From the NCBI GenBank assembly GCA_000092065.1, contig CP000585.1: a stretch of DNA of 64,000 bases; one strand, written 5' to 3'. Positions within the stretch are counted from its first letter, which is position 1. Every line of letters starts with the position of its first letter. Below, piece after piece: positions 2,607-54,845 of the stretch. The notes beneath the pieces are model-generated. The model saw only the letters and a program-made list of their open reading frames with translations, had not been told where the DNA came from and did no database searches. The stretch comes from Ostreococcus lucimarinus (Eukaryota). Both the position numbers and the translations under genes were made by a program.

Positions 2607-3869
2607 ATGTCGACCGTCGACCCGTTCGTGTATCCGATGATCGCTCGCTCGCTCGCTCTCTTCGCGCTGAGCTTCGTCACCGCCGCCGACCGACGCGAGG
2701 ACGACGCGACGTTGCGGTTGGAACTGACCTTGACCACGCGCGTGGCGTCGGCGAGCGCGACGCTTCGCGTCGCTCGTCGGACAATGTCGCATCCCGAAGC
2801 GTTCATGCGCGCCTTCGCCGAAATGCTCGACGCGTACGGTCTCGAACAGACGAAGATGTTTTCACACGCGACGCTGTTCGTGCCGACGGCGTCCAACTGC
2901 GCGGTGCGGTTCGCCAAGAGTCTCGGCGCCGAGTGGAGCAGACAGGTCGTCGAGAGCGTCGGAGACGAAGTTCAATGTTGGTTGATACTGGATTTTGAAT
3001 GGTCGGGCGCGCAAGATTCTCGAACAACTTTCTTGCGGGACACGTTCGGGCTGTTCTTGAATGGATTGCGCGCGGCGATGTTGTTTGTTGATATTGGAGC
3101 GCGAGTCGACGAAGTCGTGTACGACGACGAACGATCGACGGCAAACGCGGCGACAGTATTCGTGAACTGCGCTCGGCGAATCGGGATCTCGGATTCGACC
3201 TGGGCCGCCATCGTGCGCGTTGTCGTTGGTTCGATCGAGAGTCGCCCCTTCATCGACCGCGACGGTATTTCGGTGTACATCAACGGAAGTTTGATGCCGT
3301 GGCGTCAGACTCGCGCCATGGTTGATCATTTGTGGACGCTCGACGAACGATTCAAATCGTTTGGACTCCCTCCGCTTCGCCAAGATCTCACTTTGGACGC
3401 CAATGCCGAGCACGTCGTATACTTTGCGCCACCTTGTGAGACGACAACGACGACGACGTACGTGCGCCGCGTCACGATACACTTTCTCTCCACCGCGGCA
3501 AAGCCCGCCGACGTGGTTTGCTCGGCGTTTCCGCTCGCGGGTGTCGCCGACGCGATGAAAACCACGATGACTTCCGATATTCCGATACGCGTCAGCGCAG
3601 AGTTGTCCACCGCGGGCATGTTCGACGCCCTGCAAATACTGAAACGCGACGATCCGATGCGATTTAGCTCGGCGGAGGAGAAGGAATTCATTGAGACGAG
3701 CGATCGCATCGGCCGGGGCGTGCTCGCGATTTTAGAATCGCCCTCGAGCGACGTCGCGCGAGACTTTTGCTCGCAGCGCGATGCGGATGATGAAGACTGG
3801 CGACGAAAGGTGCTGAGTAACCTTCGATCGAGTCGCGTGTACGCGGCGAATTGCGTGGAGATGAAGTGA
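2607..3869 (+). CDS. hypothetical protein (420 aa), no recognisable domain
   Basis: Long ORF with ATG at 2607 and coding-like codon usage. No motif I can name. Confidence 0.45.
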   Translation: MSTVDPFVYPMIARSLALFALSFVTAADRREDDATLRLELTLTTRVASASATLRVARRTMSHPEAFMRAFAEMLDAYGLEQTKMFSHATLFVPTASNCAVRFAKSLGAEWSRQVVESVGDEVQCWLILDFEWSGAQDSRTTFLRDTFGLFLNGLRAAMLFVDIGARVDEVVYDDERSTANAATVFVNCARRIGISDSTWAAIVRVVVGSIESRPFIDRDGISVYINGSLMPWRQTRAMVDHLWTLDERFKSFGLPPLRQDLTLDANAEHVVYFAPPCETTTTTTYVRRVTIHFLSTAAKPADVVCSAFPLAGVADAMKTTMTSDIPIRVSAELSTAGMFDALQILKRDDPMRFSSAEEKEFIETSDRIGRGVLAILESPSSDVARDFCSQRDADDEDWRRKVLSNLRSSRVYAANCVEMK

Positions 3870-31988: not shown

Positions 31989-32037
31989 CTTTTTCCGAAT
32001 CCAATCAATCGAATGGAATGGAATCGAATCGTTCGTT

Positions 32038-43174: not shown

Positions 43175-45085
43175 TTACTCGTCGTCATCCGTGAACGAGA
43201 CGGCGGATTCGGCGTCGGAATAGCTCGCTAGGTATGACGCTTCGTCGCGATCGGGCGCGGTGGGACGAGACCGACGCTTGGCGTCTCGAGAGGCGACGAT
43301 CGCGCGTCTGGTGGATTCGAGCGCGCGTCTGTTTTCGGCGCTCAAGCCGTCGTACGCTGTTTCTCCGGCGGCGTTCGTGACACGCTCGTCGGCGCCTTTG
43401 CTAACCAGATACTCGCCGAGCTCGAAGTACCCGTAACCGTAGCAATAGTGCAACGCGGTGTTGCCTTGCTTGTTTCGAGCGTCGAGCGGGACGCCGGCGC
43501 GAACGCACATCTTGGTGACGCGCTTGCGGTTGTTTTGCGCAGCGACGATGAGAACGGTGTTTCCGAACGAATCTCGCGTGTCGACGTCAAATTCGGTGCT
43601 ATTGTGCACAAGGATTTCTTGTGCTTCGCTTACGCGCCCGTTACGAACGGCGCTGAAGATGGGATGCTGAACGCCGTTCTCTCTGAGCGTCTTTGGGGCA
43701 TCTTTCTCGATCGACGTCTTGGAAGACGCTTCCTCGGGAATGATCAACTTTGCGGGAGAAAACTTTTTGTACGTCGGAGACACAGAATCTGGTCCAACCG
43801 GGGACCCGAGATTCGTGTCTCGTCGCGCTGGCTCGGGCGAACGCAGCCACTCGGGCAAATCTCTGTCGTCGAGCGTCGTCCGCGCCGGGCTCGGCGAGCT
43901 CTCCGCTGGACTCTGCGCCGCCACCGACGAGTACTTACGCTCCGTTGCCTTCTCTTCCTTGGACCACATCTCGTAGTCTTTCTTCGTGTCCTTTAATTCG
44001 TCCGCGAGCGAGCGCACGCGCGCCTCGCTCGCGTCTCGAGCTCGACGCAGCGCGTTTATTTGCTCAATCATCGCGCGCTCTTTTTCGGTGAACTGCTTCG
44101 TCGTCTTTCGCATTCGACCGAGCTCCGTCTTCAACCCCGCTTCGCCGACGTCGCTCAAATCACCCTCTGGCGCCGCCGTGGCGTTCGTGGACGAATCCTG
44201 CCGCCTCTGCGATTGCGAGACGTTTAGCAATCGCTTTTCCTCAATCTGCAACTCGGCCAACCGACGCTCCGCCTCCGTCTCCTTATCCGCGGCGAGCCGC
44301 TCGCGCTCGGCGATTCGATTTTCCCTCTCGACGAGCGATCTTTCGCGCGCACGCAGCGCGTCTTCTTCCGAACGCAACCTAATTTCAAGCTCGCGCACCT
44401 CGCGTTCCATTCGCGCCCGGTCGAGCGCGACGCGTTCCCGCTCGCTCGAATCCGCGTCCTCTCCTTCGGCGACGCGCGTCGCCGTCACCACCGGCTCGAC
44501 CACCGCTTCGACCGCGCGCGACGTCGACGCGAACGTTTCCGCGCCCTCGCGCGCCGCCTCGTCGTCTAAATCCTCCAAAGTCCGCGTCTCCTCGTCCCCC
44601 GCGCTCGCGAAACAAAAGCAACGCGCCGCCGCCGACGCCCTCCGACCCGTCGCCACCGTCGCCACCGACGTCTCCCGTCGCGCGCGCGTCGCCGCCTCCT
44701 CGCGCGTCGTCTCGTTCGCCCTCGCCTTTTCGCGCGCGTCCGTCGCGTCCGCCCTCCCTTCCGTCCCGTTCGCCGTCTCGCCTCGTCGTCGTCCTCGCGC
44801 GTCGTCGTCCCGCGCGCCCGCCTCGCGCCTCCCTCCCGCGCCTTTCGCCGTCTCCCTCGCCCGTCGCGACTCCGCCCGCGCGCGCGCCATCGCCCGCCAC
44901 CCCTCGTCGCCCTCGCGCCGCCGCGCGTCGACGCCTCGCGCCTCCGCGCGTCGTCGCGCGCGCGCGTTCGCGTCCTCCGTCGCCGCGCGTCCCGCGTCCC
45001 GCCGCGTCTCTTCCCTCGCTCCGCGTCCCGCGCGGTGTCGCGCCATCGCGCGTCGAAGCGCCTCCGAGCGCTCGCGCGACGCCAT
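43175..45085 (-). CDS. ankyrin-repeat protein with long R/E/A-rich coiled-coil N-terminal region
   Basis: C-terminal ankyrin repeats (GNTVLIVAAQNNRKRVTKMCVRAGVPLDARNKQGNTALHYCYGYGYFELGEYLVSKGAD). ORF-track start 45193 is TTG inside a tandem repeat; first ATG (MASRERSE) is at 45085. Confidence 0.5.
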   Translation of the reverse strand: MASRERSEALRRAMARHRAGRGAREETRRDAGRAATEDANARARRRAEARGVDARRREGDEGWRAMARARAESRRARETAKGAGGRREAGARDDDARGRRRGETANGTEGRADATDAREKARANETTREEAATRARRETSVATVATGRRASAAARCFCFASAGDEETRTLEDLDDEAAREGAETFASTSRAVEAVVEPVVTATRVAEGEDADSSERERVALDRARMEREVRELEIRLRSEEDALRARERSLVERENRIAERERLAADKETEAERRLAELQIEEKRLLNVSQSQRRQDSSTNATAAPEGDLSDVGEAGLKTELGRMRKTTKQFTEKERAMIEQINALRRARDASEARVRSLADELKDTKKDYEMWSKEEKATERKYSSVAAQSPAESSPSPARTTLDDRDLPEWLRSPEPARRDTNLGSPVGPDSVSPTYKKFSPAKLIIPEEASSKTSIEKDAPKTLRENGVQHPIFSAVRNGRVSEAQEILVHNSTEFDVDTRDSFGNTVLIVAAQNNRKRVTKMCVRAGVPLDARNKQGNTALHYCYGYGYFELGEYLVSKGADERVTNAAGETAYDGLSAENRRALESTRRAIVASRDAKRRSRPTAPDRDEASYLASYSDAESAVSFTDDDE

Positions 45086-45116
<31 letters not shown>

Positions 45117-45144
45117 ACGACGCGCGGCGACGGCGCGTCGCGCG

Positions 45145-45432
45145 ATGCCGCGCGACGGATCGTCGTCGTCGCGAATCCTGTCTGATCCCTCAAACATCTC
45201 TTTAAATGCGTTGAATCGTTCGTACTTTAACATGGCGCACGTGGAGGCGCGTGCTGCCGTCGTCGCGAATCCTGTCTGATCCCTCAAACGTCTCTTAGAA
45301 TGCGTTGAATCGTTCGTACTTTAACATGGCGCACGCGGAGGCGCGCGATGCCGTCGTCGCGAATCCCGTCTGATCCCTCGAACATCTCTTGAAATGCGTT
45401 GAATCGTTCGTACTTTAACATGGCGCACGTGT
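45145..45432. repeat. tandem repeat, 94-bp unit x about 3.1 copies
   Basis: Units CGTCGTCGCGAATCC[T/C]GTCTGATCCCTC[A/G]AAC[A/G]TCTCTT[T/A/G]AAATGCGTTGAATCGTTCGTACTTTAACATGGCGCACG[T/C]G[G/T]AGG[A/C]GCG repeat with period 94 (gcgaatcc at 45171, 45265, 45359). About 92% identity between copies. Confidence 0.85.
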
Positions 45433-45544
45433 AGGAGCGTGGATATTTTCGTCGTCCGACGTCGTGGTCGGTCGGACGGGCGATCGCGCGGGATCGCGAT
45501 CGCGCGCGGCGCGGGGAGTTCGGCGCGCGCGAACGCGGCGCGCG

Positions 45545-46396
45545 ATGATCGTCTCGCGGCGCGCGCGAGCGGACGACGGCGGGCGCGCGGCGCGCGACGC
45601 GAGCGCGCGCGACGGGGGGAGTTCGGCGACGGGGATCCTGAGCGGCGCGGAGATCGCGACGCTGAGCGAGCACTCGTACGATCGCTTGCTGCGGTTGAAA
45701 CCGCGAGAGATCGGACGAGGGGATCGGTTGACGGCGGAGGAGACGGCGGTGACGTTCGATACGTTCGGGCCGGCGAGCGTGTCGGTGGACATCGTGAGCG
45801 TGGAGAGGGACGAGGGAGGGACGGGGGAGGGACGAGGGCGAGGGACGGCGGACGCGTTTGAGTTTTTTGAAAAGCGGGCGTTTTTGAAGGAGAGTTCGAA
45901 GAGGAACGCGATGGATTTGGCGCGGTTGCGACGGACGCGGATCGCGGACGAGCGCGCGAAGGTGCGGGAACGAGAGCGGGAGCGCGCGGCGAGCGCGCGA
46001 CCGCCGGGAGGACCGGGCGCGAACGGAGCGCCGCCAGAGGTTCGAAGGAAGAAGAGAGGTCGAGGACGGCCGCGAAAGGATGCCGTTAACGCCGCGTCGC
46101 GCCAGCGCGACGCGCGCGGGCGAAAACGGATGTACGACCGATCGACGGAGACGTGCGCGGAGTGCGGGACGCACCAGACGCCGCAGTGGCGAAGTCTTTC
46201 GGCGCAGTTCGCCGTGCTCGAGCGCGCGGGCATGCTCAACGCCGTCGTGTGTAACAGGTGTTACGCCCGCGCGAAGCGCAGAAGCCAACGTCTGGCTCAC
46301 CCTCAAACGACCACGTCGCTCGAGAAGGTCGACGGCGCGTCCGCGCCCGCCGACGCCGACGCCCTCGGCGCTCTGTGCGCCGCCGTCGACCTGTGA
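45545..46396 (+). CDS. GATA-like zinc-finger protein with AT-hook
   Basis: CAECGTHQTPQWRSL...VVCNRCYAR resembles the GATA C-x2-C...C-x2-C finger but with a 28-residue loop. AT-hook KRGRGRPRK. ORF-track start 45464 is GTG; first ATG is 45545. Confidence 0.5.
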   Translation: MIVSRRARADDGGRAARDASARDGGSSATGILSGAEIATLSEHSYDRLLRLKPREIGRGDRLTAEETAVTFDTFGPASVSVDIVSVERDEGGTGEGRGRGTADAFEFFEKRAFLKESSKRNAMDLARLRRTRIADERAKVRERERERAASARPPGGPGANGAPPEVRRKKRGRGRPRKDAVNAASRQRDARGRKRMYDRSTETCAECGTHQTPQWRSLSAQFAVLERAGMLNAVVCNRCYARAKRRSQRLAHPQTTTSLEKVDGASAPADADALGALCAAVDL

Positions 46397-46584
46397 CCGC
46401 GCGCGCGCGCGCTCTGTACGAATACCGCTCGCTTTGTTGAGTCGAATCGTAAATTCGCTCTTTGTTGTTCTTTTGTTTTGTATTGTAGAGAACGCTTCAC
46501 GTCGTGTACGGCTCCGCGTCGTCTCGTCGCGCCCGAGCAACGAACTCGGTCGCGAACGCGCCAGACGCCGCCCGCGCGCGCGCG

Positions 46585-47373
46585 ATGGCGTCGCCGCCCG
46601 GAGGGCTATCGGGCGTCCGCGCGACGCTCGAGCGCGCGCGCGCGATGCTCCACGACGCCGTGCGTCGCGCGCGCGCGGGGAAACGCGACGCGACGGCGGT
46701 CGAGGCGGCGACGGCGAACGAGGCGCGACGACGCGACGCGGACGCGCGCGCGACGACGACGACGGGACGACGCGCGGACGGCTCGCCGTCACCGCCGAAG
46801 ACACCGACGGAATCGACGGAGAAGCGCGCGAAGAGGTCGTCGCCGACGTCGTCGCCCGAGGAGGCGCGCGAAGAGGCGGCGGCGGGACGCGCGAAGCGGA
46901 CGAAGCGGCCGCCGCCCGAACGCGGTGGAGCCGTGCGCGCACCGCTCGAACGCGACGAACCCGCGCGTGGTGTGTATTTCAACTCTTCGTCGTTTACGAT
47001 GATGTCTGCGACGCCAGAGGTGGATTCAGACGACGATGGAGCTCGACGGGAAATCGACGAGAGCGCGCGGTTGATTCACGAATTTACAGACCTCGCCGAG
47101 GAGGAGCTCCAATACATGGTCAAGTGGAATTCCATCGCGCTGAGGTTTCGGTGCTTGGGACGTCACGAAAGCCCGGCGCTGTGTGAGGCATTCGCTAGAA
47201 CGCACTGGCGCTCGCTGCGTGAGAAGGATTTCTTCTCGTATTATCTCAGAACCGTTCTGGCGATGTACGAATTCGGCGCAATCGACCGCGCGGGCGTCGT
47301 GCACGCCCTCAGGGTGGCCGCACATGTCACCGGACAAAAGCGCGTGGGTTGGAGGAGACATTCGATTCATTAG
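46585..47373 (+). CDS. hypothetical protein (conserved-looking C-terminal region, no family recognised)
   Basis: ATG at 46585 (MASPPGG). C-terminal EFTDLAEEELQYMVKWNSIALRFRCLGRHESPALCEAFARTHWRSLREKDFFSYYLRTVLAMYEFG. ORF-track start 46504 is GTG. Confidence 0.4.
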   Translation: MASPPGGLSGVRATLERARAMLHDAVRRARAGKRDATAVEAATANEARRRDADARATTTTGRRADGSPSPPKTPTESTEKRAKRSSPTSSPEEAREEAAAGRAKRTKRPPPERGGAVRAPLERDEPARGVYFNSSSFTMMSATPEVDSDDDGARREIDESARLIHEFTDLAEEELQYMVKWNSIALRFRCLGRHESPALCEAFARTHWRSLREKDFFSYYLRTVLAMYEFGAIDRAGVVHALRVAAHVTGQKRVGWRRHSIH

Positions 47374-47418
47374 TCCTAGATTTGTTGTCGCTCACTAAAT
47401 TTGCTCGCGAAATGCTCG

Positions 47419-50400
47419 CTAAATTTCATCGGCGTTTCGACTGATGACTCTTCGCAGAGACGACTCACGCATCATCCTCATGAGGGAGTAGTACATCTTC
47501 ATTTCATCCCGTCGTCTTCCGGGATAATCTAACGACCGAATTAAACGCAAACCTCGACAGACGTTGATCAGCTCATCAGTGTTGGCGATTTCGTTCACGA
47601 AGACGTCGGAGAGTTTGAAATTGTACATCGTGCGAACAAAAAAGCCGACGGTGACGAAAACAAAGCCGTACAGCGCGCGAAGACTGTAGCTCGATAAGCC
47701 CAAGCTCGACACTAAACCGACGAGGTATCGATCGCTTATGGTGGCGTATAAAACCCCGTAATCTGAAGGCGGTAGCGTCGAGTCAATTCCACAGAAATCC
47801 GGCGCAGCGGTTGGGAAAGAGGGCGACGTCGGAGTCACTTCCCACAAATTCGCCGTCGGCGTCGATCCTAGCGTCATGTTTAAGCCGATGTACGCCGACG
47901 TGTTGAAATCCAAGATCTCGACCATGGTCTCAGGTGTGAGATGAAAGCCGCGCGGTATCACGTTTGCGAACTGGATACTCCCTTGACCGTTGGTGATGAC
48001 GCCGGCGAGCGCGGCGCAATGCGCGTTGGTGAGCGTCGCCACCAAGTCTTGCGAAACCGTCTTCGCCTTCAGCGGGCCGAGTCTAGTGAACTCCGTCGTG
48101 ATAGTCATCTTGGCCGTGCACGTGGATGCTGCTGCTGCTGTGTTGAGCGACTGTGCGAGAGCTAGTTTCGAACTTTGCGGCAAAATCCAAGCGCTTTGAG
48201 AATACTTTGGAAACCGCACGCAGTCGGAGTCAATGCTGCGAAAGGAAAGACCTCTGAGAAGTTCTGACTTCATTGCCTCTTGCGAGATCGAAGACATCCC
48301 GTAACCGGTCGCGAACCCAGAGTATATCCTGTGACGCTCCGTCTTTTCATCCGCGTAGAAGTCTAATTGCACCTGCATCGTCGCAGCTTCTATTCTGTTG
48401 CTCGTCAACGCCGGATTGAATGTGCTAAAGATGAAAATCGGCCCGGTGAGCAACAGCATGATGATGGCGATGATGCCGCCGCCGAGTAGAATCTTAAGGG
48501 GCCAAGGCACAGGTTTTGCTCCGCTGTAATACTGGCGTCTGTTCCGTCTCCACGAGATGAGCATGTCCGTTTTGTGCAACAGGTAGTAAAGCGTCTCGTA
48601 CCGGAACCACATGACGTAATCTATGCTCGTGTCGCACACGACCCAGTCCAAAAGAGTTCGTATTTCGAACAAGAATGGCAACGTGTTGATGAGGTTGTAC
48701 ACGAATCGTCCTACAGGGGTATTCCCGAAACGCATGAGGACGATTTTGAACTGATACCCCTCCCTAAAACCTTCTCGAAGTTGCAACGCGCTGACGATGA
48801 ATTGGAAGAGCATCAAAACCGTAAACGCCTTGAGATGCGAGTTATGTCGCGGAGACACGAATGAACGCGTGTCCAGTAACGGAAGGAAAATGAAAACCAG
48901 TGAGACGTATAGCACGACTTGTGCAAAGTGCAAGTAGAACTTCAACTTGATGTTCTGCGAAAGATACACCAAGCGCATCACAATTATCCACATCACAGAC
49001 GACACGATGGAAATCGTCAGTCCCGTTCCAAAGGACTCCGTCGAACTCAGCGCCGTGCCAGACTCGAAGACTAAGTTACGGTAACCCGTGACAAACCAAC
49101 AAGTAATGATTAATTGTAAGAAAATCTCCAAGGAGTAAAGGTCGACGCCCGGTTTGCCGACATTCCTTTTCGGCATTTTGGCGGAATTGCTAAGACAAAT
49201 CTGCGTCACCAATTCTCTGAAACGAGTTTGTGCAACGTGTATACCCCTAGTGAAGAGGCCGAACGTCCTCATATACGCCCTTCTCCGTTCACGTCGTCTC
49301 AAAGCACGAGTGCGTTCCTTACTAGTGCGTCCTTCTAGATGGTGCGTCTCGACTTGCCGTGTTTTTCCTGTCGCGACATCCTCAAGCGGCGGCGACGTCA
49401 ACGCCGCCAAGTCGATGTCGTCCTTGAATTCACCAGCATGGTACGTCTGATAATCTTCTCGAGGAGCTAGCGGGATGGCATCGCGCCTCGTGCATTGACC
49501 CAAACTATGCATGTGTGACATGTGTAAGACGAGCGTGACAATGAGAAATATGTCTGTCCAGACTTCATCGCGAACCAAATTTCGAGCGCGTGGGACGGTG
49601 AGAAGAGTCGCACTCAACGTGCTAAACTCACTGTCCGCGGCCGGGTCATACAACGTCATCGTCGGACAATACGGTTGCGCACTGATGTACCACTTGTTGC
49701 GGTTGTCAAACTTTGCGTTCGCATCAAGTTCCATGCAGAACGCCTTGCTTCGGAGCAAAATCCGTGCGTAAAAGCACGCGACGGAATACCAGAAGATGAA
49801 ACGCCACATCTCCGGCAGTGGCTGCGGATTCCACATCGCCGCGAACGCCAAAATGAAGATCACGAGACATGCACTCATCAAATCGACGTGATCGATGAAG
49901 TTACACACCAAAGCGATGTACAACAAGCGCTCGCTTTGAGAATAGATGATCTTTCCGAAGCCGGTAATGATATTCGCGCCGCCCCAGTCTCCTTTTCGAG
50001 TCCACTCGCTTTCGCCGCCTTTGTCGTTGGGCAACGGATATAGCGCGGGATCGAGCAAGTAAGCGGCAGAATTTCTCGCAGCGTGGACAACCTTGGCAAC
50101 GCCATTTATCAACTTGTCTTTGCCCGATAAAACCTCTTCACCTTCCTCGTCGTCTTGCGGCATTGGCATGGTGACGACGTCGGATGGCTCTGACGGAGGT
50201 CCGTAACCAATCGACCTTGAACACGATTGCACGGTGAAGGAGTAGCTCATACCCGGAGTTAGACCAGAGATCACATGTGATGACGGTGCCCGTGACTCTG
50301 CATCAACGTCCACTTTCACTGGGTTCACGTGATGTGGAAATATCGTTGTCCGCGGCGAACGCTCGCGCTTTATAGTGAATTGTTCGATGTCGTCAGTCGA

Positions 50401-53400
50401 GCCGCGCATCTTCCACTTCACCTCGACGGTGGTTGAGTTTTGTGCCCGCACAGTGACATGTTCAGGAACATATTTTTCCGCCGCCGTCTCTTCGTCGATT
50501 GTGTGCCTGAACTTTTGGAAATGAGTCCATTCAGACGCTTGCAAGGCGCTCGCTCGAACTTTGTCGGTGATCATTTTGTACTCTTCATCAATCTCCTGTT
50601 GAATCTTTGCTCGCCATCCAAGAATGTATTTGCGATACAAGATGGAACGGCGAGCACGCTTGTCCATTGCGTTTTTTTCTAATCGCAAGACTTCACGGAC
50701 GTATCGTTCGTTGGAGAAAAGTTGCGCTTGAACCGAGCAAAGAATGAATAGCGCGACGTCGACGCCTATGGAACCAGAGCTGTAACCCAACACAGACACA
50801 CAGTCTGCAGCGAGCATGGTAGCGTCACACGCCGAGCCGAGTTTACGGACACCGAACAAGGAGTTAATTGTTTCGCACATGCGCGTACCCACAACACATG
50901 ACCCAAGTCGCGCAGTGCGACCATTGAGAAGTATCGGCTTGATATAGGGGATCTGATACACAAGTTTCGCCGCGAGGACGGTGAAGACGTACACGGGCAA
51001 GAGACGGAACAACTCGCCATTCCACCATTTGTGGGCGCGACTCGGGAATATTCGAGTGTTTATTCGCAACTCATTGAAGCGCATCGAAAACAAAATCGTG
51101 ATTCCCGCATAGCACAGTGATATGAAATCACTATCGTGCTGCGCCACGGCAGCCGTCGTAGTGAGAATAACGATGACCAAAAGTAGATACTTGTAGAAGA
51201 ACTTCAAGAAGAATTGACCCATGATCTCTTCAATTCTCCGTCGCACAGTCGTTCGTCGCTCGTGAATCGCCATCGAAGCGATTTGGCTGAAAGTGTAGTG
51301 CTCTTGAATGACTTGCAATTCTTCCTTAATTGAAACTTGCCTCGATAGATTTCGATTCGTCCAATTGGCGCGCTTCATTTCTTCCCTTTGAAGGTCTGCG
51401 TCCACGCTCGGAACGTACTCTTGGAGTTGCACGTTTACCGCGTCCCATCGCTTTATTTTGTCATCGTAGGAAAGTTCTGATGTTTCATCGAGCTTGCGCC
51501 GTTCTGCGAGGCGAGTATTGACTTTGTTTGCGAGAGATGTAAACGCCTCTGACTGCACCCACTCGCTACCCATCTTTTGGCCTTTCGCTTTCACGTAGCC
51601 GCGCATCCATGCCGTGCGGACGTCGTCCCGAACCATGTTTTTGTGTCCTTTTCGCACGTAATGTCCCACGAGTAACATCACGAGGATGTCAGATATTATT
51701 TCGTACTCATGTACAAAAACTGGCCTCGAGTTGCAATCCAAATACGCTGACGGCGCAGGCGCTGCGGCAGCGGAGGACGGACAGTCCCAAATATCGAGCC
51801 AAAACCGTTTTTCAGGGCACGTCTCACAGTAATTTGTATTGAGCCAACTCGGCGGCAGGCGCAAGGCGGCCATGATGTGTATCGCCAAGATGGCGCCGAT
51901 GATGAGAAGTATTGCGTAACCTTGAGACTGAAATCTCACAACTCCTGCGCGATTGTTGAAGGCCAAAAAGTATCCAAGGATGATGATATATATAGAACTC
52001 GTCACATCTGATTTTAAGAAGGCATTGATCAGTAACACGGCCATCGCGAGCAGATACTTCAAGCTCGCGAGCTGCTCAATCGCGGAATCTAGTGTCTCGA
52101 AGGTATTCTTGACATCCCACTTCACGAATCGATAAACCATCCTTATGACGATTGGGCGCCATCCGTACAGTGCGATTTTACTTTTGCTATGCTTCAAACT
52201 CCCGGCATTCACCTGTTTGACGAGATTGGCGAATATATCTTCTTCTGCGCGAATCGGCGTCTGCTGCACCATGGGGGACATGCCTTCATCCGTCGTGACG
52301 ATTTTCTTCTTGCCCACTGGCGTTTCGATGTTTTTGTTTTTCATGCGCTCGGCGACGATGAGCAATTTCAACTTCTTTGCCACATCGCATCCCTGAACTT
52401 CACCGCGAAGCTTTGCCCAATAACTCGCTCGCGGAACTGCGGTCGCCGTCGTCGATTTTGCTTTCCGTTGCACCTTGACATTGTGTCGTCTCTGCAAGAA
52501 TCCGTGTAAAACGGCGAAAATGATCACCGCATAATGCGCTCCAAAAATGTACCAGTTTGTCGTAAAAGTCAAGCACGCTTGCGTCGGGAACTGGTTTGAT
52601 GATGACGCCGCAACACTAGCATCCTGACAAAATGTCTTGGTGGAATCGAGAACGTAAGGCCACGCACAACAACTCGTGGTGGTTTGCAAGTCATCGCCGA
52701 GACGTGGATCGTAAAGTGAAATCAAGCCAAGCCAACTCCCCCAATTTTCGTTTACTAACGTGTTCAGCGATCCCGATTGGAAGATCGTCAAGAGCGTGAG
52801 CTGTTTGAACACGATGGAAATCGTCGCCAGTAGAGCCAAATAAAATCCGTAGTCATTCACCTCAGTGTGAATTGATACTGGCGCGGCATGATGATAGTCT
52901 GATTCCCTCAGGTGACGCCTGAACCACCCAGACGATCCAGATGGACTGCGCCTTGTCTGAATCGGCGGCGGCGTTATGTCGGCGGCCGTGATAACATTGC
53001 TTCGTATCCGACGCATTCGGTTCAAGAATCGCCATGAATCCGTCAAAATTCTCATCGACGTTCCAATGACGCTAAAAGTTCCATACCGAAGCGGTACGGG
53101 AGCCTTGCCGCGGATTGTTGGCACAGCGAGTTCTATGCATGCAAACATTATAACCACGACGTAGAGCATACTCACGACTTCGACTCGAAACGCCACACAG
53201 ATTGTTGCCACGAGTAAAAGCAGCTCCATGGATACGCCGTGTAACGCGGATTCGAATTCATCACCTACCGAGTCTTTCACGTGCTTTAATACCGTAGCGG
53301 TAGCGTGATACAGAAAGATAGACGGACGCATGGTGTTGATGTCCTCGACCTTCGTCGACTCGGATTCCTTACTCATATCGAGACGACGAATCGGTGTTCC

Positions 53401-54777
53401 CTCAGGCAGCCCATCTTCGTACCAGTCACTGTCGTAATCTTCACTATCGCGCTGCAAACGCTCGTTAAGCCAGTAATACAACATCACGCACATGACCAGT
53501 GTAAGGTAACGCGGCCACATGTACTTCCAAGAAAGGAGCGCCGGCGTCTGCAGTAAACCAAAGTCGAGCGGGGTGAGCTGTCGACTCAAACTACTCGGCC
53601 ACGCGTCCATGAGACTACCGGCGACCTCTGGTATGTTATAGACGTACAAAAGCGAGATGTACACGTACTGAAATGCGATATAATACCAAAGCGTATTTCG
53701 CAAACGCACCAGCCACTTATCTTGGAACTTCTTGGCGTCAACATCGGCGCCTCTCGTACCACTGAGGTTTCTCGCTGACGCCAGCATTCGCAAAATGGTC
53801 ACCAAAACTGTGACTATGTCCACAACTTGAATCATACTCATGGGCAATCCTCCAACGGTTGCTAAACCAGTGAACGTGATTGCGGCGGCTAAGATTGGAG
53901 CGTAGAGCAAAGGTCGATACCCTCCCACGCGGACTCTGAATCCCATCAGCTCTTGAAACTTGAATGAACTATCTATATCGCCGTGTGACACAGCCAAGGC
54001 GAAGCATGCGTTGGCCAACAGAGCGAAAATGAACCCAACAGTTTGCGCCGGTTTCATGCAACAAAGCCGTCCATTCCTACCCAAGGTCCAAAAGCCAAAG
54101 ATGTTTGCGACTTTGGACGTTTCTAATTCCTGCGACGTCGCCCCGAGCGAAGTAAACACATACGACCCGAATATGATCAATCCCGTCAGGAATTGCATTT
54201 TACCCGTGGTTGAAATTGCGTGCTCAAGTCGCGTCAAACGTGACGTGCGTGGATCACCGCGCCCGCCGACGAAACGCGTGTGCACCGCGACGAAGAGGAG
54301 AAACTGCAACACTCCGTTTGCCGAGTATCCCACGACGCCGCAACAAATGAAACCGAGCAGACGCCACCATTTCTGTATCGTATTCCGCAAATCTTCCTCT
54401 GTCAGCCCGACGACGAACATCAAACCTCGTCGCAAGTACTTCGCAATCGCTGTGGTTCTTCTCGACCCGCCAGCCTCCAAATGAGCCAACTCTCGTCTCA
54501 ATTCGCCTCGCGCCCACAGCGACGTCAAAGCCACGAACGCATCCGGAATGAGCGAACGCGTGCCGACCGTCGCTTCATCGAACTTTTGCAACCCGAACAC
54601 TTCCAGCCATTTCGTTGGGACTCGTTCCGCCCCGATCGCGGCGTACGACGTTTGAAAAACGACCTGCACGAACAAAAATCCTCCGGCGACGAACGTCGTA
54701 AACGTCACCGCCTTTGTCGACCGTAACACCGCCCTCGCCACCGGTCGCGTCGACGCGCACAGCGCGAGGTAACACAT
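47419..54777 (-). CDS. Piezo-type mechanosensitive ion channel homolog (about 2450 aa)
   Basis: One uninterrupted ORF of about 7.4 kb with dozens of predicted TM helices. Piezo signature LPFLFEIRTLLDWVVCDTSIDYVMWFRYETLYY (Piezo PFLFELRTLIDW). C-terminal cap and inner-helix region collinear with mouse Piezo1. ORF-track start 54795 is GTG; first ATG is 54777. GC is clearly lower than in flanking genes. Confidence 0.8.
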   Translation of the reverse strand: MCYLALCASTRPVARAVLRSTKAVTFTTFVAGGFLFVQVVFQTSYAAIGAERVPTKWLEVFGLQKFDEATVGTRSLIPDAFVALTSLWARGELRRELAHLEAGGSRRTTAIAKYLRRGLMFVVGLTEEDLRNTIQKWWRLLGFICCGVVGYSANGVLQFLLFVAVHTRFVGGRGDPRTSRLTRLEHAISTTGKMQFLTGLIIFGSYVFTSLGATSQELETSKVANIFGFWTLGRNGRLCCMKPAQTVGFIFALLANACFALAVSHGDIDSSFKFQELMGFRVRVGGYRPLLYAPILAAAITFTGLATVGGLPMSMIQVVDIVTVLVTILRMLASARNLSGTRGADVDAKKFQDKWLVRLRNTLWYYIAFQYVYISLLYVYNIPEVAGSLMDAWPSSLSRQLTPLDFGLLQTPALLSWKYMWPRYLTLVMCVMLYYWLNERLQRDSEDYDSDWYEDGLPEGTPIRRLDMSKESESTKVEDINTMRPSIFLYHATATVLKHVKDSVGDEFESALHGVSMELLLLVATICVAFRVEVVSMLYVVVIMFACIELAVPTIRGKAPVPLRYGTFSVIGTSMRILTDSWRFLNRMRRIRSNVITAADITPPPIQTRRSPSGSSGWFRRHLRESDYHHAAPVSIHTEVNDYGFYLALLATISIVFKQLTLLTIFQSGSLNTLVNENWGSWLGLISLYDPRLGDDLQTTTSCCAWPYVLDSTKTFCQDASVAASSSNQFPTQACLTFTTNWYIFGAHYAVIIFAVLHGFLQRRHNVKVQRKAKSTTATAVPRASYWAKLRGEVQGCDVAKKLKLLIVAERMKNKNIETPVGKKKIVTTDEGMSPMVQQTPIRAEEDIFANLVKQVNAGSLKHSKSKIALYGWRPIVIRMVYRFVKWDVKNTFETLDSAIEQLASLKYLLAMAVLLINAFLKSDVTSSIYIIILGYFLAFNNRAGVVRFQSQGYAILLIIGAILAIHIMAALRLPPSWLNTNYCETCPEKRFWLDIWDCPSSAAAAPAPSAYLDCNSRPVFVHEYEIISDILVMLLVGHYVRKGHKNMVRDDVRTAWMRGYVKAKGQKMGSEWVQSEAFTSLANKVNTRLAERRKLDETSELSYDDKIKRWDAVNVQLQEYVPSVDADLQREEMKRANWTNRNLSRQVSIKEELQVIQEHYTFSQIASMAIHERRTTVRRRIEEIMGQFFLKFFYKYLLLVIVILTTTAAVAQHDSDFISLCYAGITILFSMRFNELRINTRIFPSRAHKWWNGELFRLLPVYVFTVLAAKLVYQIPYIKPILLNGRTARLGSCVVGTRMCETINSLFGVRKLGSACDATMLAADCVSVLGYSSGSIGVDVALFILCSVQAQLFSNERYVREVLRLEKNAMDKRARRSILYRKYILGWRAKIQQEIDEEYKMITDKVRASALQASEWTHFQKFRHTIDEETAAEKYVPEHVTVRAQNSTTVEVKWKMRGSTDDIEQFTIKRERSPRTTIFPHHVNPVKVDVDAESRAPSSHVISGLTPGMSYSFTVQSCSRSIGYGPPSEPSDVVTMPMPQDDEEGEEVLSGKDKLINGVAKVVHAARNSAAYLLDPALYPLPNDKGGESEWTRKGDWGGANIITGFGKIIYSQSERLLYIALVCNFIDHVDLMSACLVIFILAFAAMWNPQPLPEMWRFIFWYSVACFYARILLRSKAFCMELDANAKFDNRNKWYISAQPYCPTMTLYDPAADSEFSTLSATLLTVPRARNLVRDEVWTDIFLIVTLVLHMSHMHSLGQCTRRDAIPLAPREDYQTYHAGEFKDDIDLAALTSPPLEDVATGKTRQVETHHLEGRTSKERTRALRRRERRRAYMRTFGLFTRGIHVAQTRFRELVTQICLSNSAKMPKRNVGKPGVDLYSLEIFLQLIITCWFVTGYRNLVFESGTALSSTESFGTGLTISIVSSVMWIIVMRLVYLSQNIKLKFYLHFAQVVLYVSLVFIFLPLLDTRSFVSPRHNSHLKAFTVLMLFQFIVSALQLREGFREGYQFKIVLMRFGNTPVGRFVYNLINTLPFLFEIRTLLDWVVCDTSIDYVMWFRYETLYYLLHKTDMLISWRRNRRQYYSGAKPVPWPLKILLGGGIIAIIMLLLTGPIFIFSTFNPALTSNRIEAATMQVQLDFYADEKTERHRIYSGFATGYGMSSISQEAMKSELLRGLSFRSIDSDCVRFPKYSQSAWILPQSSKLALAQSLNTAAAASTCTAKMTITTEFTRLGPLKAKTVSQDLVATLTNAHCAALAGVITNGQGSIQFANVIPRGFHLTPETMVEILDFNTSAYIGLNMTLGSTPTANLWEVTPTSPSFPTAAPDFCGIDSTLPPSDYGVLYATISDRYLVGLVSSLGLSSYSLRALYGFVFVTVGFFVRTMYNFKLSDVFVNEIANTDELINVCRGLRLIRSLDYPGRRRDEMKMYYSLMRMMRESSLRRVISRNADEI

Positions 54778-54845
54778 AATGTAACAACACGACACCTACA
54801 TCGCGGCATCGCCATTCATCAGTCTTTCACTCTTCGCTCGCGAAT

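Follow-up and report, generated by a model that had tools for sequence, protein, structure and literature searches.

A variable-copy 94-bp tandem repeat between the head-to-head ankyrin and GATA-like genes of Ostreococcus lucimarinus, a probable young minisatellite of their shared promoter region

Polymorphic tandem repeats in promoters are known in yeast (Vinces et al., 2009, as cited in PMC3887541), and promoter minisatellites (VNTRs) are dealt with for yeast and humans in PMC4857002 and PMC3899988; the influence of natural variation in such promoter repeats on expression has been studied across the yeast genome (PMC3516485). No account of a promoter repeat of this kind in Ostreococcus came up in a search of the literature. 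The array reported here lies in a stretch of 64,000 nucleotides of O. lucimarinus (NCBI GenBank assembly GCA_000092065.1, contig CP000585.1), hereafter the window, whose G6PD protein was identical at 490/490 positions to XP_001417868.1 of O. lucimarinus CCE9901, so that the window belongs to this strain or to one almost identical with it. It resembles the promoter VNTRs in that units of tens of bases are arranged head to tail immediately upstream of genes, the copy number varies among individuals, the changes recur and the local diversity is far above that of the flanks. It differs from them in having a long (94 bp) and complex unit that is not AT-rich simple sequence, in being present in only 1–3 copies and in serving two divergent genes. 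The likeness is one of structure and polymorphism, and the expression side of it is putative.

The locus can also be compared with two other kinds of system. As in bidirectional promoters, the start codons of the two divergent genes are close together (459 bp), the arrangement is conserved across Ostreococcus lineages, and a low-GC island with a switch in strand composition lies between the genes; unlike bidirectional promoters generally, the central part is multiplied in an array. As in tandem enhancer or cis-module arrays, a block with putative sites (TTTAAC and CACGTG) is repeated near genes, but conservation of the candidate motifs from copy to copy is not strict, and no conservation of motifs was demonstrable in the more distant Ostreococcus species. 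Our preferred reading is that the array is probably a young, species-specific minisatellite of variable copy number, derived by tandem duplication of a promoter-region core shared by the two head-to-head genes. The array is a fairly ordinary type of feature, and its mildly interesting twist is that a sister lineage has independently duplicated part of the same putative bidirectional promoter.

The array consisted of three head-to-tail units at 45164-45445, which were 90–94% alike and contained no indels. Tandem Repeats Finder reported it at 45164-45441, with a period of 94, 3.0 copies, 91% matches, 0% indels and a score of 479, and the in-register alignment of the repeats gave identities of 94% and 90% to copy 1 for copies 2 and 3, respectively. 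Its parts were the following:

45140..45163, left boundary of the array: an apparent partial-copy remnant, delimited by reading the sequence against the unit junctions.
45164..45257, repeat unit 1 (94 bp): the unit nearest the ankyrin gene, extra with respect to the common 2-copy alleles.
45258..45351, repeat unit 2 (94 bp): 94% identity to unit 1.
45352..45445, repeat unit 3 (94 bp): the unit nearest the GATA-like gene, its final GGATA merging into the unique right flank.

In the preliminary description of this DNA, the 94-bp repeat in three copies had been placed at 45145-45432. The array itself is real, and those coordinates sit about 15 bp too far to the left. The offset is understandable because the left flank at 45140-45149 (GCGCGATGCC) resembles the 3' end of a unit, a resemblance that brings the array to some 3.1–3.2 copies. 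Two motifs had also been attributed to every unit: TTAACATGGCGCACG was exact in 3/3 units, whereas CTGATCCCTCAAAC was exact in units 1 and 2 only and unit 3 reads CTGATCCCTCGAAC. A 20-nt and a 28-nt sub-motif each occurred exactly three times in the 64-kb window, where shuffled sequences would be expected to give about zero, and no match to them was found elsewhere in the window. The array was the strongest tandem repeat of the window, the runner-up being GC-rich low-complexity sequence with a score of 203; at a score threshold of 130, it was the sole tandem array there that was not GC-rich low complexity. Both its head-to-tail arrangement and the length of its unit fall within the structural definition of a minisatellite (unit of about 10–100 bp).

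Whether the unit was dispersed or unique, a check proposed together with the preliminary description, was addressed by a scan of the metagenome collection, in which it was unique to the array locus. The 20-nt core AATCGTTCGTACTTTAACAT was present in four contigs of this collection, all of them representing the array locus with 97.5–99.4% identity, and had 0 matches in the viral contigs. Matches of 11–13 nt were detected elsewhere in the window, the best two at 3343 (inside a CDS) and at 32026 (inside a (CGTT)n microsatellite), and they were ascribed to chance because they lie within a coding ORF and a microsatellite. Moreover, the 3-copy structure was reproduced independently: metagenome contig L012 carries three units, the first two identical to units 1 and 2 of the window, and contig L029 likewise carries three. 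That several metagenome contigs break within the array could be taken as a sign of an assembly artefact; nevertheless, the confinement of the core, within the metagenome collection, to a single locus instead of many unrelated sites, the chance nature of the short matches and the two independent 3-copy contigs make it next to negligible in probability that the array is an assembly artefact, a fragment of a transposable element or another dispersed repeat.

Many independent short-read metagenome contigs (L003-L007, L009-L011, L013, L016 and L031) stopped within or close to the array, or at the very GC-rich beginning of the GATA-like gene. Logan contig L016 terminated inside unit 1, an end point that is no reliable guide to where transcription starts. 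The array locus seems to break short-read assemblies repeatedly, which matters to anyone assembling Ostreococcus genomes.

The genes and the second repeat that surround the array were the following:

43175..45085, minus strand: ankyrin-repeat protein gene (Pfam Ank_2/Ank_4/Ank_5; orthologues found).
45085..45114: (TCGCG)6 microsatellite directly upstream of the ankyrin ATG (period 5, 6.0 copies, 100% matches).
45545..46396, plus strand: GATA-like gene, 283 aa, with an atypical zinc finger (CX2C-28 residues-CX2C).

The array was located 79 bp upstream of the ankyrin ATG (45085, minus strand) and 100 bp upstream of the GATA-like ATG (45545, plus strand), the two start codons lying head to head and 459 bp apart. 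The statement of the preliminary description that the repeat sits exactly between two divergent genes was thus borne out, and the pair was kept in the same orientation in five other Ostreococcus lineages (L001, L014, L017, L018 and L019). A head-to-head pair less than 1 kb apart, in an arrangement that is conserved, is what is expected of a bidirectional promoter. The array formed a low-GC island (50–56% GC) between flanks of about 80% GC, and the GC skew flipped its sign across it, as expected for diverging transcription. The (TCGCG)n microsatellite was a second variable repeat of the same intergenic region, with 4–6 copies among the alleles (four in L002 and five in L013).

The overlap of unit 1 with the start of the ankyrin ORF, as originally proposed, was not supported: the start in question is a TTG, and the first ATG of the gene, at 45085, lies 79 bp outside the array (an alternative ATG is found at 45046). 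Towards its N-terminal end, the gene consisted of GC-rich sequence of low complexity. The peptide MRDQTGFATT does occur in two of the listed ORFs, as had been noted, and both of them begin at TTG. These starts and the shared peptide are irrelevant, since the ORFs were listed under the bacterial code and the host is a eukaryote.

The name of the second gene also calls for some caution. The only Pfam hit of its protein was to GATA, with a score of 18.7 bits below the cut-off of 26.8 and a coverage of 14/36 profile positions. In addition, its finger (CAECGTHQTPQWR...CNRC) has a loop of 28 residues instead of the usual 17–20, so that the protein has neither the gathering score nor the CX2C-X17-20-CX2C spacing of the Pfam GATA family. 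The label used in the preliminary description, which is retained here, therefore reflects a partial hit below threshold. The protein was encoded exactly on 23 metagenome contigs.

A 31-nt direct repeat was also observed around the start of this gene, at 45495-45525 and 45598-45628; its two copies are 90% identical, are spaced by 103 bp and contain GGGGAGTTCGGCG. One copy lies in the GATA-like 5' leader and is conserved in L014, and the other lies just inside the coding region.

The loci used for comparing alleles were gathered through protein look-ups of both flanking genes and through a DNA scan with the core. Fourteen sequences spanned the array from flank to flank: three had 3 copies, nine had 2 copies and two had 1 copy, these alleles coming mostly from short-read metagenome assemblies, which are able to collapse or break tandem repeats, and the 1-copy state being represented by two contigs only. 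Their distribution was as follows:

3-copy alleles: the window, L012 and L029.
2-copy alleles: L002, L013, L015, L023, L025 (an 837-kb contig), L026, L027, L030 and L032.
1-copy alleles: L024 and L028.

Copy number thus differs among individuals as it does in a VNTR, with the reservation that most of the sequences are short-read metagenome assemblies. The comparison of copy number, likewise a check proposed with the preliminary description, gave one, two and three copies among wild genotypes and supported the earlier suggestion of a young minisatellite, here one specific to its locus. A single metagenome yielded both L012 (3 copies) and L013 (2 copies). The allele of L027 is equal to units 2 and 3 of the window except for one base, which identifies unit 1 as the extra copy of the window allele; the first copies of the 2-copy alleles L013 and L015 showed 4–5 differences from unit 2 of the window and 8–9 from unit 1. 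The unit-3 type of copy was found in all of the alleles seen, the 1-copy alleles included. One haplotype of this last copy, CCGGCTGATGGCGCGAAC, was found with 2 and 3 copies, and the other one with 1, 2 and 3. Copy number therefore varies on both last-copy haplotypes, and either there have been several gains or losses of units or the alleles have been reshuffled by recombination. In L011 the repeat junction was different, with a period of 95 that takes in sequence of the right flank, which points to a separate duplication event.

Among the alleles, the coding flanks were 99.3–100% identical, while the array region was 88–95% identical. The array is thus a hypervariable marker specific to its locus, with 1–3 copies and many substitutions amid genes that are more than 99% identical, and could be used to tell O. 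lucimarinus genotypes apart in metagenomes.

The 1-copy alleles show that the additional units can be dispensed with. If copy number has an effect at all, it is probably a quantitative one and possibly almost neutral. The coexistence of alleles with one, two and three copies lends weight to a serious, though on balance improbable, alternative reading, in which the array is a selectively neutral intergenic minisatellite and neither gene is measurably affected by the number of units. Among the differences that separate the three copies of the window, several are CpG-to-TpG or CpG-to-CpA changes, a mutational pattern and not a selective one, and the upstream copy of L009 has decayed; both observations are in line with neutrality. 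A genome-wide study of natural variation in yeast promoter tandem repeats reportedly revealed limited effects on expression as well.

The comparison with the sister lineages provided evidence against neutrality. In L014, which is 97–99% identical to the window in conserved genes, there was no array but one sequence with homology to the unit over its full length; aligned locally, this copy scored 76 against the unit (shuffle maximum 39) and 62 against the AT-rich core alone (shuffle maximum 32). According to a three-way alignment, the conserved intergenic parts were the stretches beside each ATG and the block TGAATCGTTCGT(G)ACTTTAACAT(C)GGCGCACGTG, which in L014 had 0 substitutions and two single-base insertions. 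Hence, the repeated unit holds the only intergenic part, beyond the ATG-adjacent stretches, that is conserved with the single-copy lineage, which argues against a purely neutral repeat. The ancestral state was probably single-copy, given that one copy is present in L014 and in two O. lucimarinus-type contigs.

In L001, which is 94–97% identical in conserved genes, the same intergenic region contained a different tandem array, in which a 103-bp unit is present in 1.9 copies. No homology was detected between this 103-bp unit and the 94-bp unit. The sequence ATA(C/T)GACGGTGCGTG(A)TACC is common to the L001 unit and the left-hand portion of the L014 promoter, a match whose score was reached by 0/300 shuffles. 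In two close lineages, different pieces of the ancestral promoter were thus duplicated. The duplication of another piece of the same promoter in a second lineage also speaks against neutrality: as the 64 kb of the window hold no second array of this kind, the double duplication would be an improbable coincidence unless the region is a hotspot or selection is involved. Furthermore, the intergenic DNA of Ostreococcus is very compact and is expected to be mostly promoter or UTR, an expectation that is likewise at odds with a neutral spacer.

The more distant Ostreococcus lineages L017-L019 kept the gene pair and had no array. Local matches to the core (such as TCTTGAAATGC and AATGCG..GAAT) were found in them with p values of about 0.02–0.2, and a joint k-mer test across these lineages was not significant.

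Within the unit, the candidate sites and the least variable block were the following:

45213..45233 (unit 1), 45307-45327 and 45401-45421, plus strand: the least variable 21-nt block, GAATCGTTCGTACTTTAACAT, at unit positions 50-70.
45237..45242 (unit 1) and 45425-45430 (unit 3): CACGTG, a G-box/E-box palindrome; unit 2 has CACGCG.

The 21-nt block lies within the stretch of about 35 nt that is conserved with the single-copy L014 and contains the TATA-like sequence TTTAAC. In this conserved stretch, GAATCGTTCGT is followed by ACTTTAACAT and then by GGCGCACGTG; it includes TTTAAC and usually CACGTG. The candidate core-promoter or binding-site sequences of the unit were the TATA-like TTTAAC on the plus strand, TTTAAA/TTCTAA on the minus strand, and CACGTG. 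CACGTG was present in 10/17 of the first copies tabulated and in L014, and several others had CACGCG. Since neither copy of L015 has it, the motif is not strictly conserved; it occurred 21 times in the window overall.

Constraint was evaluated on 26 copies (22 distinct), which had been found without reference to the core sequence. In these copies, only 2 singleton changes fell within GAATCGTTCGTACTTTAACAT, whereas segments of equal size averaged 31.5 changes. The permutation p value for the 21-nt block was 0.027 unstratified and 0.067 stratified by CpG class in a smaller set, and 0.085 stratified in the 26 copies. These values are suggestive of constraint on the block within the species; as statistics they are weak, and to that extent they leave ground to the neutral reading set out above.

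The length of the unit, 94 nt, is in the right range for a small or medium-sized non-coding RNA such as a snoRNA, and a tandem cluster of RNA genes was considered. The test was prompted by a genome paper on O. tauri, which documents compact intergenic regions and many small RNAs and reports 138 candidate snoRNAs together with 116 ncRNAs of medium size, a part of which is intergenic (bioRxiv 10.64898/2026.07.10.737489). Every unit of the array contains CTGA, which is D box-like. On the other hand, no Rfam family overlapped the units (gathering threshold over the whole window, and E values up to 10 around the array), no tRNA was found with ARAGORN, and no C-box-like motif was present on either strand. 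The folding of the unit was no better than that of shuffled sequences on both strands and in two registers (z between -0.4 and +1.4). Outside the core, the unit cannot be aligned even to that of the close lineage L014, the L014 core has two single-base insertions, and the copy number ranges from 1 to 3. With neither a family match nor a stable conserved fold with boxes, it is very improbable that each unit is such an RNA. A scan for bacterial promoters and terminators was also run and is uninformative for a eukaryote.

A coding repeat was not supported, as 94 is not a multiple of 3. For the same reason, reading frames are not kept between units.

The preliminary description had further proposed that, if located in a 5' UTR, the array could act as a series of upstream ORFs, since an ATG is present in each unit. 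On this reading, each ATG would open a short ORF that regulates one of the two mRNAs, GATA-like or ankyrin. Each unit of the window does contain ACATGG on the plus strand, a favourable eukaryotic start context, opening ORFs of 15, 15 and 4 codons, and the same CATG supplies an ATG on the minus strand. However, many natural copies read ATC in place of the plus-strand ATG, among them the final unit of most alleles, the two units of L015 and the only one of L014, and the minus-strand peptide MLKYERFNAF is frameshifted in L014 by a 1-nt insertion. As neither the start codon nor the peptide is conserved, the proposal was abandoned as extremely improbable.

Under the preferred reading, that of a young minisatellite made from the promoter-region core, an ancestral single copy would have been duplicated in tandem, and unequal recombination or replication slippage between units would then have generated alleles with 1, 2 and 3 copies, which now occur side by side in natural populations. 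Each extra unit would add protein-binding or initiation sites, TTTAAC and CACGTG being the candidates, and would put 94 bp more between the start regions of the two genes; altered expression of one or both genes could result. A regulatory role of the array as a series of cis-modules, as raised in the preliminary description, is plausible given its position and the block conserved in the single-copy lineage L014, and it is from position alone that we infer promoter function and an effect of dosage. If copy number does affect expression, the array would represent natural regulatory variation driven by a tandem repeat in a eukaryotic genome that ranks among the smallest and most compact, in which promoters are only a few hundred bases long.

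A stronger version of this proposal holds that the shared promoter is a hotspot at which selection repeatedly favours tandem duplication, the copy number of the 94-bp unit (and of the 103-bp unit of L001) acting as a reversible dial of expression. We regard this version as doubtful. If true, the dial would adjust how strongly a fast-evolving zinc-finger regulator, the ankyrin gene or both are expressed in wild Ostreococcus populations.

Nucleotide identity between the sister lineages was uneven around the locus. When positions 44400-47400 of the window were compared with L014 and L001, much faster divergence was seen in the GATA-like gene (82–84% identity), in the N-terminal ankyrin sequence (78–91%) and in the VEFS-box gene (88%) than in Piezo, G6PD and ADH nearby and in the C-terminal ankyrin sequence, which showed 94–99% identity. 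The Piezo-type channel homologue is encoded by an uninterrupted ORF of 2458 aa at 47419-54795 on the minus strand, and its orthologues on related contigs gave matches to Piezo_cap, Piezo_THU9_anchor and fn3.

Orthologues of the GATA-like protein were apparently confined to Ostreococcus-type contigs, with 5 hits among 5.8 billion proteins. Contig L008, which encodes a match to this protein with 68% identity, was set aside because it is non-syntenic and comes from another organism. This contig carries two copies of a 120-nt element at 24-143 and 440-559, which are 90% identical and 416 bp apart, with short called ORFs between them; these elements may resemble the repeated 'introner' introns of Micromonas.
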